Below, one piece after another: positions 32,642 to 38,419 of a DNA stretch of 64,000 nucleotides. The notes below the pieces were generated by a model. The model worked only from the letters and a program-made list of their open reading frames with translations, ran no database searches and was not told the DNA's origin. This stretch comes from Candidatus Enterousia sp. Lineage in GTDB: Bacteria > Pseudomonadota > Alphaproteobacteria > Rs-D84. A program made the position numbers and the translations under genes. The stretch spans positions 135,112 to 199,111 of the forward strand of contig JAZLAT010000005.1 in NCBI GenBank assembly GCA_045613345.1, in the 5' to 3' direction. Position 1 is the first letter of the stretch. Each line of letters begins with the position of its first letter.

Positions 32642-32950
32642 ATGAAAATGATAGCAAATCCTGAAAACATTATTTCTTTAACAGATTTTAAGCGCAACGC
32701 AGCAGATGTTGTAAAGCGCATAAAAGATGACAAATCGCCAGCTGTCTTGACTGTCAACGGTGCTGCATCTGTGGTTGTGCTGGATGCGAACGAATATCAC
32801 AGGATTGCACGCGATGCAGAGATGGGCTCTATGATGCGCGGCATCGAAGATGGTTTGAAAAGCATGGAAGAAAATCGTGGTATGCTGTTAGATACCGCAT
32901 TTAAAACACTGAAACAATATATGCGAAACGCCTTAAAACGTCAAGGTTAG
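32642..32950 (+). CDS. type II antitoxin, Phd/YefM family
   Basis: N-terminal ISLTDFKRNAADVVKRIKDDKSPAVLTVNGAASVVVLDANEY is the Phd/YefM fold pattern. 3-nt gap to a RelE/ParE-type toxin. Confidence 0.7.
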   Translation: MKMIANPENIISLTDFKRNAADVVKRIKDDKSPAVLTVNGAASVVVLDANEYHRIARDAEMGSMMRGIEDGLKSMEENRGMLLDTAFKTLKQYMRNALKRQG

Positions 32951-32953
32951 ACA

Positions 32954-33256
32954 ATGGCAAAAAAATATTCAGTTATAGTTGAAGAGCGTGCATATAACGA
33001 TTTGCGTGATATATTTATTTATATCGCAAAAGATTCACCTTTGATTGCAGACAAAATATATGACGAACTTTTGGAACAGATGCATTCGTTGCAAGAATTT
33101 CCAAAAAAGCATCAAGTTATTATAATTGTTCGCGACCACGAGATAAGACATTTGGTATTCAAGAAAGGATTTCGAATAGTATATACGATACACGACAACG
33201 AGGTCCATATTTTGCACTGTTTCAGGTCAGAACAAATTTTGAAAGAATGTTTATAA
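32954..33256 (+). CDS. type II toxin, RelE/ParE family
   Basis: 100 aa. ...IRHLVFKKGFRIVYTIHDNEVHILHCF matches the ParE/RelE C-terminal pattern. Paired with the antitoxin. Confidence 0.75.
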   Translation: MAKKYSVIVEERAYNDLRDIFIYIAKDSPLIADKIYDELLEQMHSLQEFPKKHQVIIIVRDHEIRHLVFKKGFRIVYTIHDNEVHILHCFRSEQILKECL

Positions 33257-33365: not shown

Positions 33366-33947
33366 ATGAAATACGTAACAGAAATGAATTCAATCATTGC
33401 CGAATGGAAAAAAACATGCATATATAATTTAACTGTTGCTTTCCCAAAAGAAATTTTAAATAAACAACAATTGTCCACCAAATCTTGGACCGATATTATC
33501 AGTGCATCATATGATTTAATTCAAGAACCAGATACAATCTCTCGTGCTTACTCTACAAATTGCTTCATTCTTGGCGCGGCTGCTGGTCCTAATAAACTAG
33601 CAGGATTTGATAGGGACCAAAATGTTTATGCCTTTTATAAAAACACATTTGGCCCATCATTAAAATTTGCGACCGATTTATTAGACCAAAGCGCATTTGC
33701 AGCAGAACCAAATGCATATGTGATTTTACCAAGTGGAACACCATACAACAATGGATTACCAGCTAGTTTGCAATATATAACCCCACGTGCCATGATGATG
33801 CATACAGTGTCCAAAAACGAAAATGCACACAAAGTTGATGATATATTGTTCAGTAAACATTTAGGTATTGTTGTTATTAAAGCTGTACCAGAACTTCCAA
33901 AACCAGCATTGGATTGGGCTGCACAAAATAATGTAAAAGTATATTAA
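33366..33947 (+). CDS. hypothetical protein
   Basis: 193-aa ORF with a plausible start. No motif recognised. Confidence 0.35.
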   Translation: MKYVTEMNSIIAEWKKTCIYNLTVAFPKEILNKQQLSTKSWTDIISASYDLIQEPDTISRAYSTNCFILGAAAGPNKLAGFDRDQNVYAFYKNTFGPSLKFATDLLDQSAFAAEPNAYVILPSGTPYNNGLPASLQYITPRAMMMHTVSKNENAHKVDDILFSKHLGIVVIKAVPELPKPALDWAAQNNVKVY

Positions 33948-34217: not shown

Positions 34218-34263
34218 TTGGTAGCGGCGAAGGGATTCGGACCCCTGACCAAAGGATTATGAT
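34218..34263. repeat. attL: displaced copy of the 3' half of tRNA(CAT)
   Basis: 46/46 nt identical to 38344-38389 (TTGGTAGCGGCGAAGGGATTCGGACCCCTGACCAAAGGATTATGAT). Confidence 0.9.
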
Positions 34264-34550: not shown

Positions 34551-35972
34551 ATGGATGATAAATTTATATCCCCACAACAACTGGCAGAATATTTGGGGAT
34601 GCCTTATTCTGCATTGGCTCAACACAGAAAAAAAGGAACTGGGCCAAAATATTTAAAAATAGGTCATCTTGTTCGTTACAGAATGTCTGATATAGAAAAT
34701 TGGCTCCAAGAACGCAAAGAAACCCCTATTGAATATAAAAAAAGCAAAAAACCAACTACGCATTGGAAATGTTATAAAAGAATGCTTGATGAATCATGGA
34801 TTAAATCATTAAAATCGGACGTAAATTTGTGCGTCACTGATACATGCATACCAGGTTTACAGATGCGATTTTATCATGATAGCGGTCATATATCTTTTTA
34901 TCTGGCCTATACAGCTAAAAACACCAGAATACAACGAAATCTATTTCTTGGAAAACATTGTGATTTTAAACTAGAAGAAATACGCAGAAGAGCAATGAAT
35001 TTTCGCCAGCAAGTATCAGACGGCAAAGATCCTTTTATGGATATTATCATAGAAAGAGAAAAACAGGCAGAGGAATATAGAAAAAGAATAAAAATATCAA
35101 AACTGTTGGACTTATACTTTCAAAAACATTGCATGGTTTACAAAAAACCAAATACACAAAGATCTGACAGTTTCATAATTAAATACATAAAATCAATATT
35201 GGGCAACCTATACATAACAGAATTGGATTTGCCAAAGTTGATAGATTTTTATCAACGAAAAGCAGCACAAACATCTTTTTCAACAGCAAACCATTATATC
35301 GCACTGATTTCAAATTTCTGGAATTGGTGTGAAACATATAACTACCTGCCATTAAACAGCAACCCTTGTCGCAAGATACCAAAAGGCAAAAATAAGAAGA
35401 CACCAGTAAAGCCATTAACACTGGACGAATACAAGCGACTATTACAAGCAATTGAAGATGGCTTTATATATTCGCCATATCATCCAAGAATGTTTCGAGC
35501 ATTAAAAGTGTTAATGTTAACAGGTTGCCGGACAACCGAAATAACAAAACTAAAAAAAGCAAATGTGGATTTGGAAAACGGATTCATATATTTGACCGAA
35601 AGCAAGAACAATGAAGAAAAACATCCACTGGGCCAACCCGCGATAAACGAATTACGAATTGCTTTGCAAGAGGCACCAAATGACAGCGAATACGTTTTCC
35701 CTGCTACACGTAGCGGGCCAAACACATTGTTAGATTTACGCAAGGCACACAGATGGGCGTTGGAACGTGCCGGGCTTTCACAGATGCGCAAACACGATTA
35801 TAGACATTCGTTTGTTAGTATAGGAACAGATACACTGGGAATGCCGATACAAGCAGTATCCAAAACCATAGGACATGCGGACATAGCAACAACGGCTATA
35901 TATTCACACATTTCGGACAAAACAAGATTGGAAACAGCAAACCGGATTGCGCTGGCAATAACCGGACAATAG
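34551..35972 (+). CDS. int: tyrosine-type integrase with N-terminal AlpA/excisionase-like HTH
   Basis: C-terminal catalytic residues in LTGCRTTE (R), HDYRHSF (H-x-x-R), GHADIATTAIYSH (H, Y). N-terminal SPQQLAEYLGMPYSALAQHRKKGTGPKYLKIGHLVRYRMSDIENWL is an HTH_17/Xis-like motif. Confidence 0.9.
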   Translation: MDDKFISPQQLAEYLGMPYSALAQHRKKGTGPKYLKIGHLVRYRMSDIENWLQERKETPIEYKKSKKPTTHWKCYKRMLDESWIKSLKSDVNLCVTDTCIPGLQMRFYHDSGHISFYLAYTAKNTRIQRNLFLGKHCDFKLEEIRRRAMNFRQQVSDGKDPFMDIIIEREKQAEEYRKRIKISKLLDLYFQKHCMVYKKPNTQRSDSFIIKYIKSILGNLYITELDLPKLIDFYQRKAAQTSFSTANHYIALISNFWNWCETYNYLPLNSNPCRKIPKGKNKKTPVKPLTLDEYKRLLQAIEDGFIYSPYHPRMFRALKVLMLTGCRTTEITKLKKANVDLENGFIYLTESKNNEEKHPLGQPAINELRIALQEAPNDSEYVFPATRSGPNTLLDLRKAHRWALERAGLSQMRKHDYRHSFVSIGTDTLGMPIQAVSKTIGHADIATTAIYSHISDKTRLETANRIALAITGQ

Positions 35973-36118
35973 TTTTTTATACATAAAATATGTACCGGTA
36001 TCACCCCGCCCGGCACATATTTATAAAACGATTCGTTTTAATAGTAAAATTTTGTCAATAATTTTAATATTTGTCCACATCTTGTTTTTTGTTGATTTTT
36101 TCATTTTTTTGTGATAAA

Positions 36119-36198
36119 GTTGCTAGCATAAACGCAAAGAAAATTTGCTAGCAACTAAGACCATCGTTTTTTGGTGGTTTTTTTTATCAAAAAACGAT
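36119..36198. promoter_or_regulatory. two 10-bp inverted repeats upstream of the island ATPase gene
   Basis: IR1: GTTGCTAGCA (36119-36128) / TGCTAGCAAC (36146-36155). IR2: ATCGTTTTTT (36163-36172) / AAAAAACGAT (36189-36198). They lie 63-142 nt upstream of ATG 36261. Confidence 0.35.
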
Positions 36199-36260
36199 AG
36201 AATAAACTTGAGAAACACTATTTATGTAGTATATTTCTTCTAAACATAAGGTATTTACAT

Positions 36261-37571
36261 ATGCAAATAACGTTAAAAAATGTTGGATACATAAAAGAAG
36301 CCAAAGTAGATTTGACTGGTCTAAATGTTATTGCTGGGCCCAACGGCACTGGTAAAAGTACCGTAGGCAAAACGGTTTTTTCTATAATAAAATCCATAAG
36401 CGAAAGAAATACTATTGTAAAAGAACACAGGGTTGATATTATAAAAGGGTTGTGTAGCTCGATCTTTTACGCTATTCAAAACAATTTAAATATAAAAAAG
36501 TTAGATCCTAAAGAAGCATCGTATAAAGATTTTCGAACTTTGATGGATAATTTTAATTATAGGCCTTTTGCTGCAACATTGTTAAAATGGTTAGATTCAA
36601 ATTCTTTTCTTGAAGCCAGGGATTTGGTAGTTAAAAATATATCTTTGGTTGAGGATATGGAGAGTTTGGATGATAAGAGCAAATTATCTATAAAAAGACT
36701 TTTGGATAACTTGTTGAGTGTTTTTGTAGAAATTAGTGATAATGACGCTGTAAAAAAATCTTTAGAATATATGTATCAAGAAATATTCAGAGAGCAGATA
36801 AATAATATTAACACACATGAAACGTCCGAAGTTTTATTTGAAAATAACGGTTACTCTTTAGAATACAAAGTCTCTAATAATTCGGAAATCTTACCTTTTT
36901 CTGAGAGACTAAAGATCGTTAATATTGATTCTTCGTTAAAGGAAAGTATTTTTCCAAAAGTAACATTTCTTGAAACCCCACTTGTTTTACAAGTTGCTGG
37001 ATGTAGCGGTTTACCTTTATATTGGAGTGATCTTATTGCTAAAATAAAGCTAGATATAACATCTACTAGCTCTGGTATTAACAAATGGGTTTATGATGAA
37101 ATATCTAAGGTTCTTAATGGAGAACTGATCCACATATCGGAAAAACAAGAATTTTTCTTCGTTCCTAAAGGTACAGATAATAAATTGTATGTTAATAATA
37201 TGGCATCCGGTGAAAAATTGTTCGGTATTCTACAAAGATTATCTAAAACAGGTTCGTTGTCTTCAGATCATTTGCTGATATTTGATGAACCAGAAAATCA
37301 TTTACATCCACAGTGGCAAGTAAAGCTCGCTGAAATATTAACATCTCTTGTAGAAAATAATATTTCCATATTATTGACAACACATAGTTCTACACTAATA
37401 AGTGCATTAAGACAATTTGCAAAAGCTAAAGATATAGTCAAAAAGACAAAGTTTTATTTTGCCGATCTAGATAGTAAAACGATAAAAAACGTTAATTCAC
37501 TCAATGAAAAAGGTGAAGACGTTATTTATAAATCATTCTATGATTCTAAGAACTTTTTACCAGAGTTTTAA
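36261..37571 (+). CDS. ABC/SMC-type (AAA_15/AAA_21-like) ATPase, candidate defence-system sensor or motor
   Basis: Walker A GPNGTGKST (aa 26-34), signature-like NNMASGEKLF, Walker B/D-loop LLIFDEPENHLHPQWQ, H-loop LLTTHSS. A helical insertion of roughly 270 aa lies between Walker A and the signature. Confidence 0.85.
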   Translation: MQITLKNVGYIKEAKVDLTGLNVIAGPNGTGKSTVGKTVFSIIKSISERNTIVKEHRVDIIKGLCSSIFYAIQNNLNIKKLDPKEASYKDFRTLMDNFNYRPFAATLLKWLDSNSFLEARDLVVKNISLVEDMESLDDKSKLSIKRLLDNLLSVFVEISDNDAVKKSLEYMYQEIFREQINNINTHETSEVLFENNGYSLEYKVSNNSEILPFSERLKIVNIDSSLKESIFPKVTFLETPLVLQVAGCSGLPLYWSDLIAKIKLDITSTSSGINKWVYDEISKVLNGELIHISEKQEFFFVPKGTDNKLYVNNMASGEKLFGILQRLSKTGSLSSDHLLIFDEPENHLHPQWQVKLAEILTSLVENNISILLTTHSSTLISALRQFAKAKDIVKKTKFYFADLDSKTIKNVNSLNEKGEDVIYKSFYDSKNFLPEF

Positions 37572-37575
37572 TAAG

Positions 37576-38118
37576 ATGAAAAAATCAACACCAATTTGTC
37601 CTTTTTGTAACAGTGATAAATCATTGTGTGGTTGTTGCGAAGCAGAAAATATCATTTCTGATAAAAATTGGTATTGCAAAGAAAAAGGACACCACGCTTT
37701 TTTGAACCAATGTATTTTTTGTGACGGAAAACATTTGTGTAGAAATGGGGCTAATCCTGATTGTATTTATAAATACAATAATGAATGTGTTATAGCTATA
37801 GAAATAAAAGATCAACCAGAGAATAGTATAGATTACGACAATCTCGTAAATAAAATAAAAAATTACTATGATTATGCAACAAACCAAGGATTAACCCCAT
37901 CGTTGTTTATTTTACAAGTTTCAAGCATTAAAAATGTCGAAAACGGTTTGTATACATTACAAGATTCATGCGAATACGGATTGGGCAAACGAGGATTAGT
38001 AATAGGACAAGGGGATAAATTATTCAGCCCTTTCGACGAATTATCGCATATCAATTGTAAATTTCGTGTTGTAAAATGCTCCGAACTAACAGAGGATTTG
38101 TTCACACAACTTTTATAA
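37576..38118 (+). CDS. Cys-rich small protein with PD-(D/E)xK nuclease-like motif, candidate effector
   Basis: ATG 4 nt after the ATPase stop. N-terminal Cys clusters CPFC..CGCC...C...CIFC..C (zinc-ribbon-like). NPDCIYKYNNECVIAIEIK fits PD...ExK with 14 residues between D and E. The ORF-track start at 37504 would overlap the ATPase gene and is less likely. Confidence 0.55.
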   Translation: MKKSTPICPFCNSDKSLCGCCEAENIISDKNWYCKEKGHHAFLNQCIFCDGKHLCRNGANPDCIYKYNNECVIAIEIKDQPENSIDYDNLVNKIKNYYDYATNQGLTPSLFILQVSSIKNVENGLYTLQDSCEYGLGKRGLVIGQGDKLFSPFDELSHINCKFRVVKCSELTEDLFTQLL

Positions 38119-38343
38119 GTCAACTTTGAATTATATCTAATTTTTAGAATTAAATTCAACCACAATTAGAACCATACTCAAAACCTCTCCACAAACCCCA
38201 TTTGTAACAAGAACTATTTTGCGACAAAATCGCCGTGTAAATTTCGTGTAAGCGATATGTAAGAACCATGTAAAATTTCAGCTCTGGTGGTAAATTTAGA
38301 TACAAAATCAACAAAATAAAAAGTCCCGGGAATCCGGGAAAAC

Positions 38344-38389
38344 TTGGTAGCGGCGAAGGGATTCGGACCCCTGACCAAAGGATTATGAT
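38344..38389. repeat. attR: 3' half of the intact tRNA(CAT)
   Basis: Identical to 34218-34263. Confidence 0.9.
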
Positions 38390-38419
38390 TCCTCTGCTCT
38401 ACCACTGAGCTACGCCGCC
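38345..38419 (-). tRNA. tRNA with CAT anticodon (elongator Met or Ile2)
   Basis: Hand fold: acceptor GGCGGCG/CGCCGCT, D-arm GCTC-AGTGGTA-GAGC, anticodon stem GAGGA/TCCTT with loop ATCATAA, T-arm AGGGG-TCCGAAT-CCCTT, encoded CCA. The T-loop has C at position 55. Confidence 0.85.

Follow-up and report, generated by a model that had tools for sequence, protein, structure and literature searches.

An OLD-like ABC ATPase and a small PD-(D/E)xK-type nuclease candidate form the sole cargo of a 4.1-kb tRNA-Met island and probably constitute an anti-phage module of a known kind

The window analysed here is a stretch of 64,000 nucleotides (nt) from Candidatus Enterousia sp. (GenBank assembly GCA_045613345.1, contig JAZLAT010000005.1, positions 135,112 to 199,111 of the forward strand). 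It contains a 4.1-kb integrase island in a tRNA-Met gene, and the sole cargo of this island is a pair of adjacent genes, of which gene 1 encodes an ABC ATPase and gene 2 a small candidate nuclease of the PD-(D/E)xK type. With a probability of roughly 0.7, we read the pair as a two-gene anti-phage (or anti-mobile-element) module that combines an OLD-like ABC ATPase as sensor with a small PD-(D/E)xK nuclease as effector. Reading it as a defence system is reasonable in view of the homology to validated systems that sequence profiles detect. The pair represents an uncatalogued sister clade of a known kind and no new mechanistic category. In window coordinates, the two genes are:

36261-37571, plus strand: gene 1, ABC ATPase, 436 amino acids (aa), intact open reading frame (ORF)
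37576-38118, plus strand: gene 2, PD-(D/E)xK-type nuclease candidate, 180 aa, start ATG at 37576, stop codon at 38116-38118

The coordinates confirm what an earlier note, made from the sequence alone, had described as two tightly coupled ORFs of 436 and 180 aa, an observation well above chance. Gene 1 ends in TTT TAA, which is followed by TAAG and then by the ATG of gene 2, leaving a gap of 4 nt. An alternative in-frame ATG at 37504 would extend gene 2 to 204 aa; conservation among homologues starts only at MKKST. In the close relative L008 (surveyed loci are given by their L numbers), the partner is called 1 nt past the ATPase stop.

Gene 1 is an OLD/PtuA/Rad50-like ABC ATPase of the defence-associated OLD/PtuA/AriA class. 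All motifs that the earlier note had quoted for the two proteins are present. In gene 1 these are the Walker A motif GPNGTGKST (residues 26-34), MASGEK (314-319), LLIFDEPENHLHP (338-350) and TTHS (373-376), with K32 of Walker A, the signature ASGEK (315-319), D342-E343 of Walker B and H375 of the H-loop as the key residues. More than 680 relatives were found at E <= 1e-10. Among 55 homologues, G26, N28, G31, K32, S33, T34, A315, G317, K319, D342, E343, H347-H349 and S376 are invariant, and H375 is conserved in at least 90%. The proposed affiliation with AAA_15/AAA_21-like defence ATPases holds, with Pfam, PADLOC and Foldseek in agreement. Both Pfam families match over the full length (AAA_21 at E = 1.8e-17, AAA_15 at 1.7e-13), as does phrog_14430 (7e-49). 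The top PADLOC match is HEC-02A (2.5e-26, 91 bits), and other top matches are PD-T4-4_A, NsnB, PDC-M47A and AriA.

The AlphaFold2 (AF2) model of gene 1 is confident (pLDDT, the predicted local distance difference test, 90.7; predicted template modelling score, pTM, 0.89) and shows an ABC fold, for which Foldseek ranks the heads of Rad50 and of SMC proteins and the PtuA of Septu and retron complexes as closest among solved structures, at E values of 1e-7 to 1e-5. A helical insert of roughly 270 aa had been proposed to lie between Walker A and the signature. The insert exists, but in the model it takes up only residues ~46-180, a compact unit of ~135 aa without coiled coil, and the rest of the span is a beta-sheet extension and the Q-loop region. 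The insert and the C-terminal tail (residues 401-436) are the least conserved parts of the protein, with majority-residue fractions of 0.34 and 0.37 compared with 0.60-0.69 in the catalytic core. The tail also has a lower pLDDT than the rest.

Gene 2 contains the motifs CPFC (residues 8-11), CGCC (18-21), CIFC (46-49) and NPDCIYKYNNECVIAIEIK (60-78). The reading of the last as a PD-(D/E)xK-type motif stood up to comparison with homologues: alignments of 11 and of 18 gene 2 sequences show conservation of D62, E76 and K78 as putative catalytic residues, and in the larger one E76 and K78 are invariant while D62 occurs in every sequence that covers its position. The AF2 model predicts a core of beta(63-67)-beta(71-78)-alpha(87-103)-beta(107-115), in which D62 stands at the start of strand 63-67 and E76-x-K78 within strand 71-78, the canonical order of a PD-(D/E)xK core. 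Motif and model together suggest that gene 2 is a small PD-(D/E)xK-type nuclease candidate. Its direct relatives total only about 20: 11 were found among 5.8 billion proteins, and the family profile recovered only 12 proteins from 1.84 billion representatives. A tblastn search of phage genomes returned nothing for gene 2. Because the family is so tiny, its homology was approached via the neighbours of ATPase homologues instead.

The cysteine clusters of gene 2 had been interpreted as a zinc ribbon, and this part of the earlier note did not survive. The two conserved CxxC knuckles of a ribbon are lacking: of the three motifs, C18-x2-C21 alone is preserved throughout the close family. Relatives at 41-48% identity have lost both CPFC and CIFC, and the CPFC pair is gone already at about 59%. 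Seven cysteines are invariant in the close family (C18, C21, C34, C55, C63, C132, and C168), and C168 is invariant across all 18 relatives. The conservation pattern hints at a metal or cluster site that links the N- and C-termini and is not a classical zinc ribbon; a metal site of a non-ribbon kind, comprising C18, C21, C34, C55, C63, and C168, is possible. Among the partner ORFs of ATPase homologues, those with at least three N-terminal cysteines tend to have a C-terminal cysteine (p = 0.003 in a naive test that ignores phylogeny, and so a hint only). A link between N-terminal cysteine clusters and a cysteine beside the catalytic Asp was considered and rejected (Fisher p = 0.3 across partners).

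The pairing of the two genes is obligate and extends far beyond the gene 2 family. We scanned one genome per GTDB species, obtained 331 confirmed ATPase loci, a lower bound, and fetched 80 of them. In 76 of these 80 loci, the ATPase gene is followed on the same strand by an ORF of 156-266 aa that starts between -77 and +74 nt from the ATPase stop, so that the co-occurrence in other genomes implied by the earlier proposal is borne out. The motif D-x(10-16)-h-h-[EQ]-x-K is found in 67 of these 76 partners, at residues ~35-87, and typically reads [AS]-S-[PV]-D-[AT]-[IL]...[FI]-[VI]-E-[FI]-K. We also looked up contigs for eight ATPase clusters from metagenomes or metagenome-assembled genomes (MAGs), and all eight are arranged in this way, with an unannotated ORF of ~166-202 aa directly downstream and ATPase identities from 83% down to 29%. 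The family ranges over Bacteroidota, Pseudomonadota, Elusimicrobiota, Campylobacterota, Bacillota and some archaea, and includes phages and small plasmids.

The four loci without a called partner are a contig end, L089, L087 and L031. At L087, only a 73-aa ORF lies downstream and is followed by a second ATPase-like ORF of 487 aa; at L031, there is no same-strand ORF and a convergent gene comes directly after the ATPase. The partner at L089 (5275-5847, from a Candidatus Methanimicrococcus MAG) is broken by one in-frame TAG (...PPSCDLLH / IDDEWYLVEFKGG). This TAG could be either a site of pyrrolysine read-through, the organism being a Methanosarcinales archaeon, or the mark of a fresh pseudogene. 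A 648-aa homologue, P0106, was considered as a Rosetta-stone fusion of ATPase and nuclease and rejected, as its N-terminal extension has no nuclease motif.

The hidden Markov model (HMM) of gene 2 recognises many of the ATPase partners (L029 at 1e-12, L073 at 6e-11, L026 at 7e-8, and L017 at 4e-7), which means that the partners are homologous to gene 2. The first 60 residues of the 76 partner ORFs contain between 0 and 7 cysteines, and the Cys-rich N-terminus of gene 2 is therefore a feature of its lineage. As hallmarks of the clade, we note DATFIETPL and FDEPENHLHPxWQ in the ATPase and S-x-D-[AC]-[IL]...E-[FI]-K-[ND]-Q in the partner.

Two-gene defence systems that join such an ATPase to a PD-(D/E)xK protein have been validated before. 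HEC-02 (Hma-embedded candidate 02) of Dickeya dianthicola requires both of its genes for defence (Payne et al., 10.1101/2024.01.29.577857) and is included in PADLOC-DB 2.0. WonAB from the Vibrio cholerae WASA-1 prophage consists of an OLD-like ABC ATPase and the 141-aa PD-(D/E)xK protein WonB (Adams et al., Nat Microbiol 2025, PMC12137116). Its protection is abolished by ATPase-motif mutants and by WonB K71A; it acts through abortive infection, with translation arrested and genomic DNA intact; and WonB is Lon-labile and toxic when overproduced, a toxicity that needs active WonA (PMC12137116). PMC12137116 credits Krishnan et al. 2020 with first noticing the operon type 'OLD-ABC ATPase + novel REase' (restriction endonuclease). 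PD-T4-4 from Escherichia coli ECOR58 is likewise a validated two-gene system, composed of a P-loop NTPase and a PD-(D/E)xK nuclease (Vassallo et al. 2022). The existence of these systems means that the earlier note was wrong, at the level of kind, to call the window pair undescribed. It had named HNH (Septu) and Toprim (PARIS) proteins as the partners of such ATPases, which is correct for those two systems but omits the PD-(D/E)xK partners of HEC-02, WonAB and PD-T4-4.

The families to which the window pair belongs are distantly homologous to HEC-02 and WonAB at the profile level. We iterated a partner superfamily profile solely on partners of window-type ATPases (95 sequences) and took the tested HEC-02A and HEC-02B sequences, as well as 12 WonB-type sequences, from the supplements of the respective papers (PMC12137116 for WonB). 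The profile aligns with ~120 residues of the tested HEC-02B (E = 2.6e-7), the catalytic motifs being in register, and at E <= 1e-3 it recovers 59 of 121 HEC-02B relatives and 10 of the 12 WonB/'novel REase' proteins. In the controls, reversed or shuffled sequences gave a best E of 1.2, and the best non-self match among all ORFs of the window reached 0.042. Alignment of profiles with hhalign gave a probability of 91.5% (P 8.8e-7) for the partner superfamily against the WonB type and 72% against HEC-02B. The ATPase family profile matches WonA at 1.1e-26 and HEC-02A at 1e-25.

As an anti-phage module, the pair would, by homology and analogy, most likely work as follows. The two genes would be co-transcribed and, across the 4-nt gap, translationally coupled. 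The ATPase would assemble as an ATP-sandwich ABC dimer, with its fast-evolving helical insert (~46-180) as the presumed infection sensor and its fast-evolving C-terminal tail as the putative docking site of the small nuclease. For a WonAB-like binding of the nuclease to dimerised ATPase C-terminal extensions, the low conservation and lower pLDDT of tail 401-436 give no more than an indirect hint. Upon a phage cue, ATP binding or hydrolysis would license the nuclease to cut nucleic acid at a D62/E76/K78 active site, and this cleavage would halt phage development at the expense of the cell, i.e., by abortive infection. By analogy with WonAB, RNA of the translation apparatus would be as likely a target as DNA. 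For the window pair itself, complex formation, sensing by the insert, the nuclease substrate, abortive infection and the defence activity are inferred.

Several points weigh against this reading. Profile searches with gene 2 gave no significant match in Pfam, PADLOC (E <= 1), NCBIfam, PHROGs or PDB sequences, so that of the Pfam and PADLOC comparison suggested earlier only the half concerning gene 1, which matches defence ATPases, came out positive. The same is true of structure prediction followed by Foldseek: the predicted core order of gene 2 is that of PD-(D/E)xK proteins, but the model is of moderate quality (pLDDT 73.5; ~85 for residues 60-180, poor for residues 1-57) and no significant match was found (best E 0.15 in the PDB and 0.022 in BFVD). 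The non-significant lists consist mostly of PD-(D/E)xK proteins (N.BspD6I, McrC, Can2, Mus81, FAN1, RecU, and cap-snatching endonucleases). Compared directly by hhalign, the gene 2 family aligns weakly with WonB (P 0.004) and HEC-02B (P 0.001), and its HMM reaches a best E of 0.026 against the 12 WonB-type sequences; the link of gene 2 to WonB and HEC-02B is convincing only via the wider partner superfamily. The HEC-02A profile matches gene 1 in two stretches, mainly at profile positions 154-299 of 337, and within gene 1 it is confined to Walker A and the C-terminal half. For complex formation, as for the roles proposed for insert and tail, the argument is one of analogy. Finally, the defence-gene neighbourhood was judged from about 12 annotated contexts, and at L017, L019 and L102 the pairs lie among housekeeping genes.

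The pair could instead be a restriction-like system in which the complex recognises and cuts invading DNA and the host survives, comparable to Septu, Gabija or Rad50-Mre11. The fold neighbours of gene 1 (Rad50, SMC, and PtuA) are DNA-handling ATPases, those of gene 2, although weak, are mainly DNA endonucleases, and restriction-modification (R-M) genes are often nearby. We nevertheless consider DNA targeting unlikely: the best-studied relative, WonAB, blocks translation while genomic DNA stays intact, and the island contains neither a methyltransferase nor any other self/non-self marker. Another explanation is an addiction or stabilisation module, with the nuclease as toxin and the ATPase as its regulator, that secures the persistence of the mini-island or plasmid in the population and provides phage defence only incidentally. 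Such a role would suit the Pfam label of AAA_21 ('putative AbiEii toxin, Type IV TA system', where TA stands for toxin-antitoxin), the toxicity of overproduced WonB, and the occurrence of the pair as sole cargo of a tiny island and, elsewhere, on a plasmid of 5.9 kb, next to a RelE/ParE toxin-antitoxin system. However, the dependence of WonB toxicity on active WonA argues against plain antitoxin sequestration, many members of the family are chromosomal, with a tRNA lacking at 56 of 60 loci and an integrase undetected at 77 of 80, and both HEC-02 and WonAB protect strongly against phages. Taken together, we find an addiction module quite improbable.

The resemblance of gene 1 to Rad50 and SMC heads, together with the recombinases that adjoin the pair at several loci, would also fit a housekeeping function, in which a Rad50/SbcC-like ATPase and its nuclease serve recombination, repair or replication of the element. 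This is very hard to reconcile with the other observations, and we give it little credence: there is no coiled coil but only the compact 135-aa helical insert, no recombinase is near most loci, the distribution is patchy and horizontally mobile, and insert, tail and partner evolve fast. Moreover, every one of the families nearest in sequence is a family of defence ATPases.

The island that carries the putative module comprises, besides genes 1 and 2, the following features:

34218-34263, no strand assigned: distal attachment (att) repeat, a displaced copy of the tRNA-Met 3' half that forms the left island border; perfect 46-nt direct repeat
34551-35972, plus strand: tyrosine integrase, 473 aa; Pfam Phage_integrase, 4.3e-24
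36157-36181, plus strand: terminator-like hairpin and T-run 3' of the integrase gene; from a consensus scan, suggestive only
36208-36235, plus strand: sigma-70-like promoter candidate TTGAGA-16-TATATT, 26 nt 5' of gene 1; from a consensus scan
38345-38419, minus strand: tRNA-Met(CAT), integration target; called by ARAGORN

The 46-nt direct repeat is perfect (34218-34263 and 38344-38389, spacing 4126 nt), and three genes, the tyrosine integrase, gene 1 and gene 2, lie between its copies, which defines an integrase island of 4.1 kb that carries nothing but the pair as cargo. No additional ORF with homologues was found between the two repeats. The earlier description of the pair as the sole cargo of an island at a tRNA is thus correct, and so is the observation that the cargo is lower in GC (0.29-0.31) than the flanks (0.37-0.48). 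Besides the catalytic domain, the integrase has an N-terminal, excisionase-like HTH_17 domain (6.6e-8) and an Arm-DNA-bind_3 domain (1.3e-6) in Pfam. The 3' 45 nt of the tRNA-Met come from the island-proximal repeat copy, and a terminator-like hairpin (38324-38339, minus strand) lies 3' of the tRNA-Met end, inside the island; both the tRNA's 3' portion and what looks like its terminator therefore come from island DNA. The promoter-like site and the hairpin after the integrase gene suggest an arrangement compatible with a separate transcription unit for the pair, although promoter- and terminator-like consensus matches are not above chance (shuffle expectation) in this AT-rich DNA. Some distance left of the island border, about 1 kb away, a pair at 32642-33256 consists of a Phd/YefM antitoxin (7.6e-11) and a ParE toxin (1.6e-9), and an unannotated 193-aa ORF (33366-33947) separates them from the att repeat.

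Outside the window, defence-like contexts include a type I R-M system with an integrase at L013, an Eco57I-type methyltransferase with ResIII at L015, and McrB at L103. Recombinases adjoin the pairs at L003, L101 and L103, and some homologous pairs are near Fic. A tRNA was found within 4 kb at 4 of 60 family loci, and an integrase was detectable with five seed sequences at 3 of 80, which led us to reject a tRNA/integrase setting as a general trait of the family. This setting is specific to the gut and rumen alphaproteobacterial lineage of the window pair. The defence-island logic invoked by the earlier note accordingly applies to the window clade, but in the wider family a tRNA or integrase setting is rare.

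Three loci deserve mention as carriers of homologous pairs. A Bacteriophage sp. contig from human faeces (L006 3950-5876, MT835532.1) encodes a 453-aa ATPase homologue with 26% identity, which overlaps a 192-aa partner containing SIDTLYY...FVEFKNG; this phage-borne pair is consistent with the match of gene 1 to phrog_14430. The 5.9-kb Klebsiella pneumoniae plasmid pMB6975_2 (L104 3382-5347, NZ_CP103616.1), which is MOBP-type and mobilizable, encodes a window-type ATPase with 27% identity that overlaps a 222-aa partner containing SVDTIVY...LIEFKEG, with the RelE/ParE toxin-antitoxin adjoining. This plasmid pair is a handy enterobacterial homologue. In Oligella urethralis DSM 7531 (L055 5992-7697), a second ATPase (395 aa) and a 173-aa protein directly follow the window-type pair, and in O. 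urethralis FDAARGOS_329 the ATPase of L055 adjoins a WonAB-like REase and ATPase pair (supplement of PMC12137116). Related systems thus occur in tandem.

The ATPase/partner cassette behaves as a mobile, exchangeable unit. In the goat-omasum MAG Alphaproteobacteria RGIG2769 (L041 1976-6079, JAFRSV010000002.1), the backbone of the window island (34551-38419) is found at tRNA-Met, with an integrase of 75% aa identity. The upstream region and the first ~110 nt of the ATPase gene (36025-36374) are 85% identical to the window at the nt level. The ATPases as a whole are only 36% identical, with 24% in the insert and 19% in the tail, and the L041 partner gave no BLAST alignment with gene 2. This looks like a cassette replacement with a breakpoint just past Walker A. 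The pair at L008 (3609-8380, JGI Ga0307249_10000134) is 78% nt-identical to that of the window, including ~200 nt upstream (36055 onward), and is flanked by tRNA-Met on one side and by a degenerate copy of that gene's 3' half on the other; the close-relative loci L007, L009 and L010 have the same type of arrangement. No homologue of the window integrase was found at L008, which has instead four ORFs of 218, 207, 56 and 51 aa without Pfam match. The 218- and 207-aa ORFs were considered as a split integrase and rejected, as tblastn showed no similarity.

A more far-reaching proposal, which we put forward only tentatively, is that the window pair belongs to a distinct, widespread and uncatalogued clade with its own trigger and target, that a Cys-rich and probably metal-binding N-terminus was gained in this lineage, and that sensor insert, C-terminal tail and effector pass together from one copy to another of a single minimal integrase/tRNA-Met island, with the breakpoint just past Walker A. 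If true, this exchange would amount to a natural 'plug-in' swap of defence specificity, and the L041 comparison already provides a concrete natural case of cassette replacement in a conserved backbone. With integrase, sensor and effector in 4.1 kb, the island would be about the smallest self-mobile defence vehicle conceivable. If active, the pair would add a broad, taxonomically diverse branch to the supergroup of ABC-ATPase + PD-(D/E)xK defences. Current detection profiles miss this branch, whose partner has no PADLOC, Pfam or NCBIfam match. The main value of the analysis lies in extended detection models and in the example of a minimal island with cassette swap.

Among the known systems, HEC-02 resembles the window pair in that its ABC ATPase gene precedes the gene of a small PD-(D/E)xK protein of NERD-like type (HEC-02B, 169 aa, with D-x12-IEVKD), and HEC-02A is the best PADLOC match not only of gene 1 but of all other family members tested. 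The two nevertheless differ in several respects. HEC-02A has 342 aa compared with the 436 of gene 1, and BLASTP aligns the tested HEC-02A with gene 1 at 28% identity over just 121 aa. The PADLOC profile of HEC-02B does not match gene 2 at E <= 1, and the sole partner that it does match, at 0.004, is that of L015, from the 40%-identity clade. HEC-02B lacks the Cys-rich N-terminus of gene 2, and HEC-02 was found embedded in Hma systems whereas the window pair is on a tRNA island.

WonAB shares with the window pair the order of an OLD-like ABC ATPase and a small PD-(D/E)xK protein (WonB K71 lies in ...FIELKG) as well as carriage by a mobile element, and some WonB-type proteins begin with CxxC and have a cysteine beside the catalytic Asp. 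The partner signatures differ, with S-x-D-[AC]-[IL]...E-[IF]-K-[ND]-Q in the window type and C-D...E-L-K-G in the WonB type, and so do the partner lengths (160-215 aa and ~140-150 aa, respectively). In the parts of the WonAB hit tables available to us (PMC12137116), one window-type ATPase appears, there as the neighbour of a true WonAB-like pair, and no window-type partner was found among the WonAB/novel-REase entries. A search for wonB in IMG/VR with the published quantitative PCR primer gave no match.

PD-T4-4 is likewise a two-gene combination of a P-loop/ABC ATPase and a PD-(D/E)xK nuclease. In PADLOC, PD-T4-4_A ranks third among the matches of gene 1 (1.8e-21), partial for gene 1 and near-full-length for the phage-borne homologue, while the PD-T4-4_B profile matches neither gene 2 nor any of the partners tested. 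PD-T4-4-type operons vary in ATPase inserts and C-terminal extensions and sometimes have a distinct nuclease (PMC12137116). PARIS (AriA/AriB) and Septu (PtuA/PtuB) are also ATPase-led two-gene systems of the AAA_15/AAA_21 ABC ATPase class: AriA profiles match gene 1 at 3.3e-19, and PtuA matches it by sequence and structure. Their effectors are of other kinds, AriB being a Toprim/DUF4435 and PtuB an HNH protein, whereas gene 2 is a candidate PD-(D/E)xK protein; neither a Toprim/DUF4435 match in gene 2 nor an HNH protein in the island was found. Judged by their own models, neither WonAB nor HEC-02 appears to include the window pair, which falls into an uncatalogued, divergent clade. The profile comparisons place this clade as a sister branch within one supergroup, about equidistant from WonAB and HEC-02.

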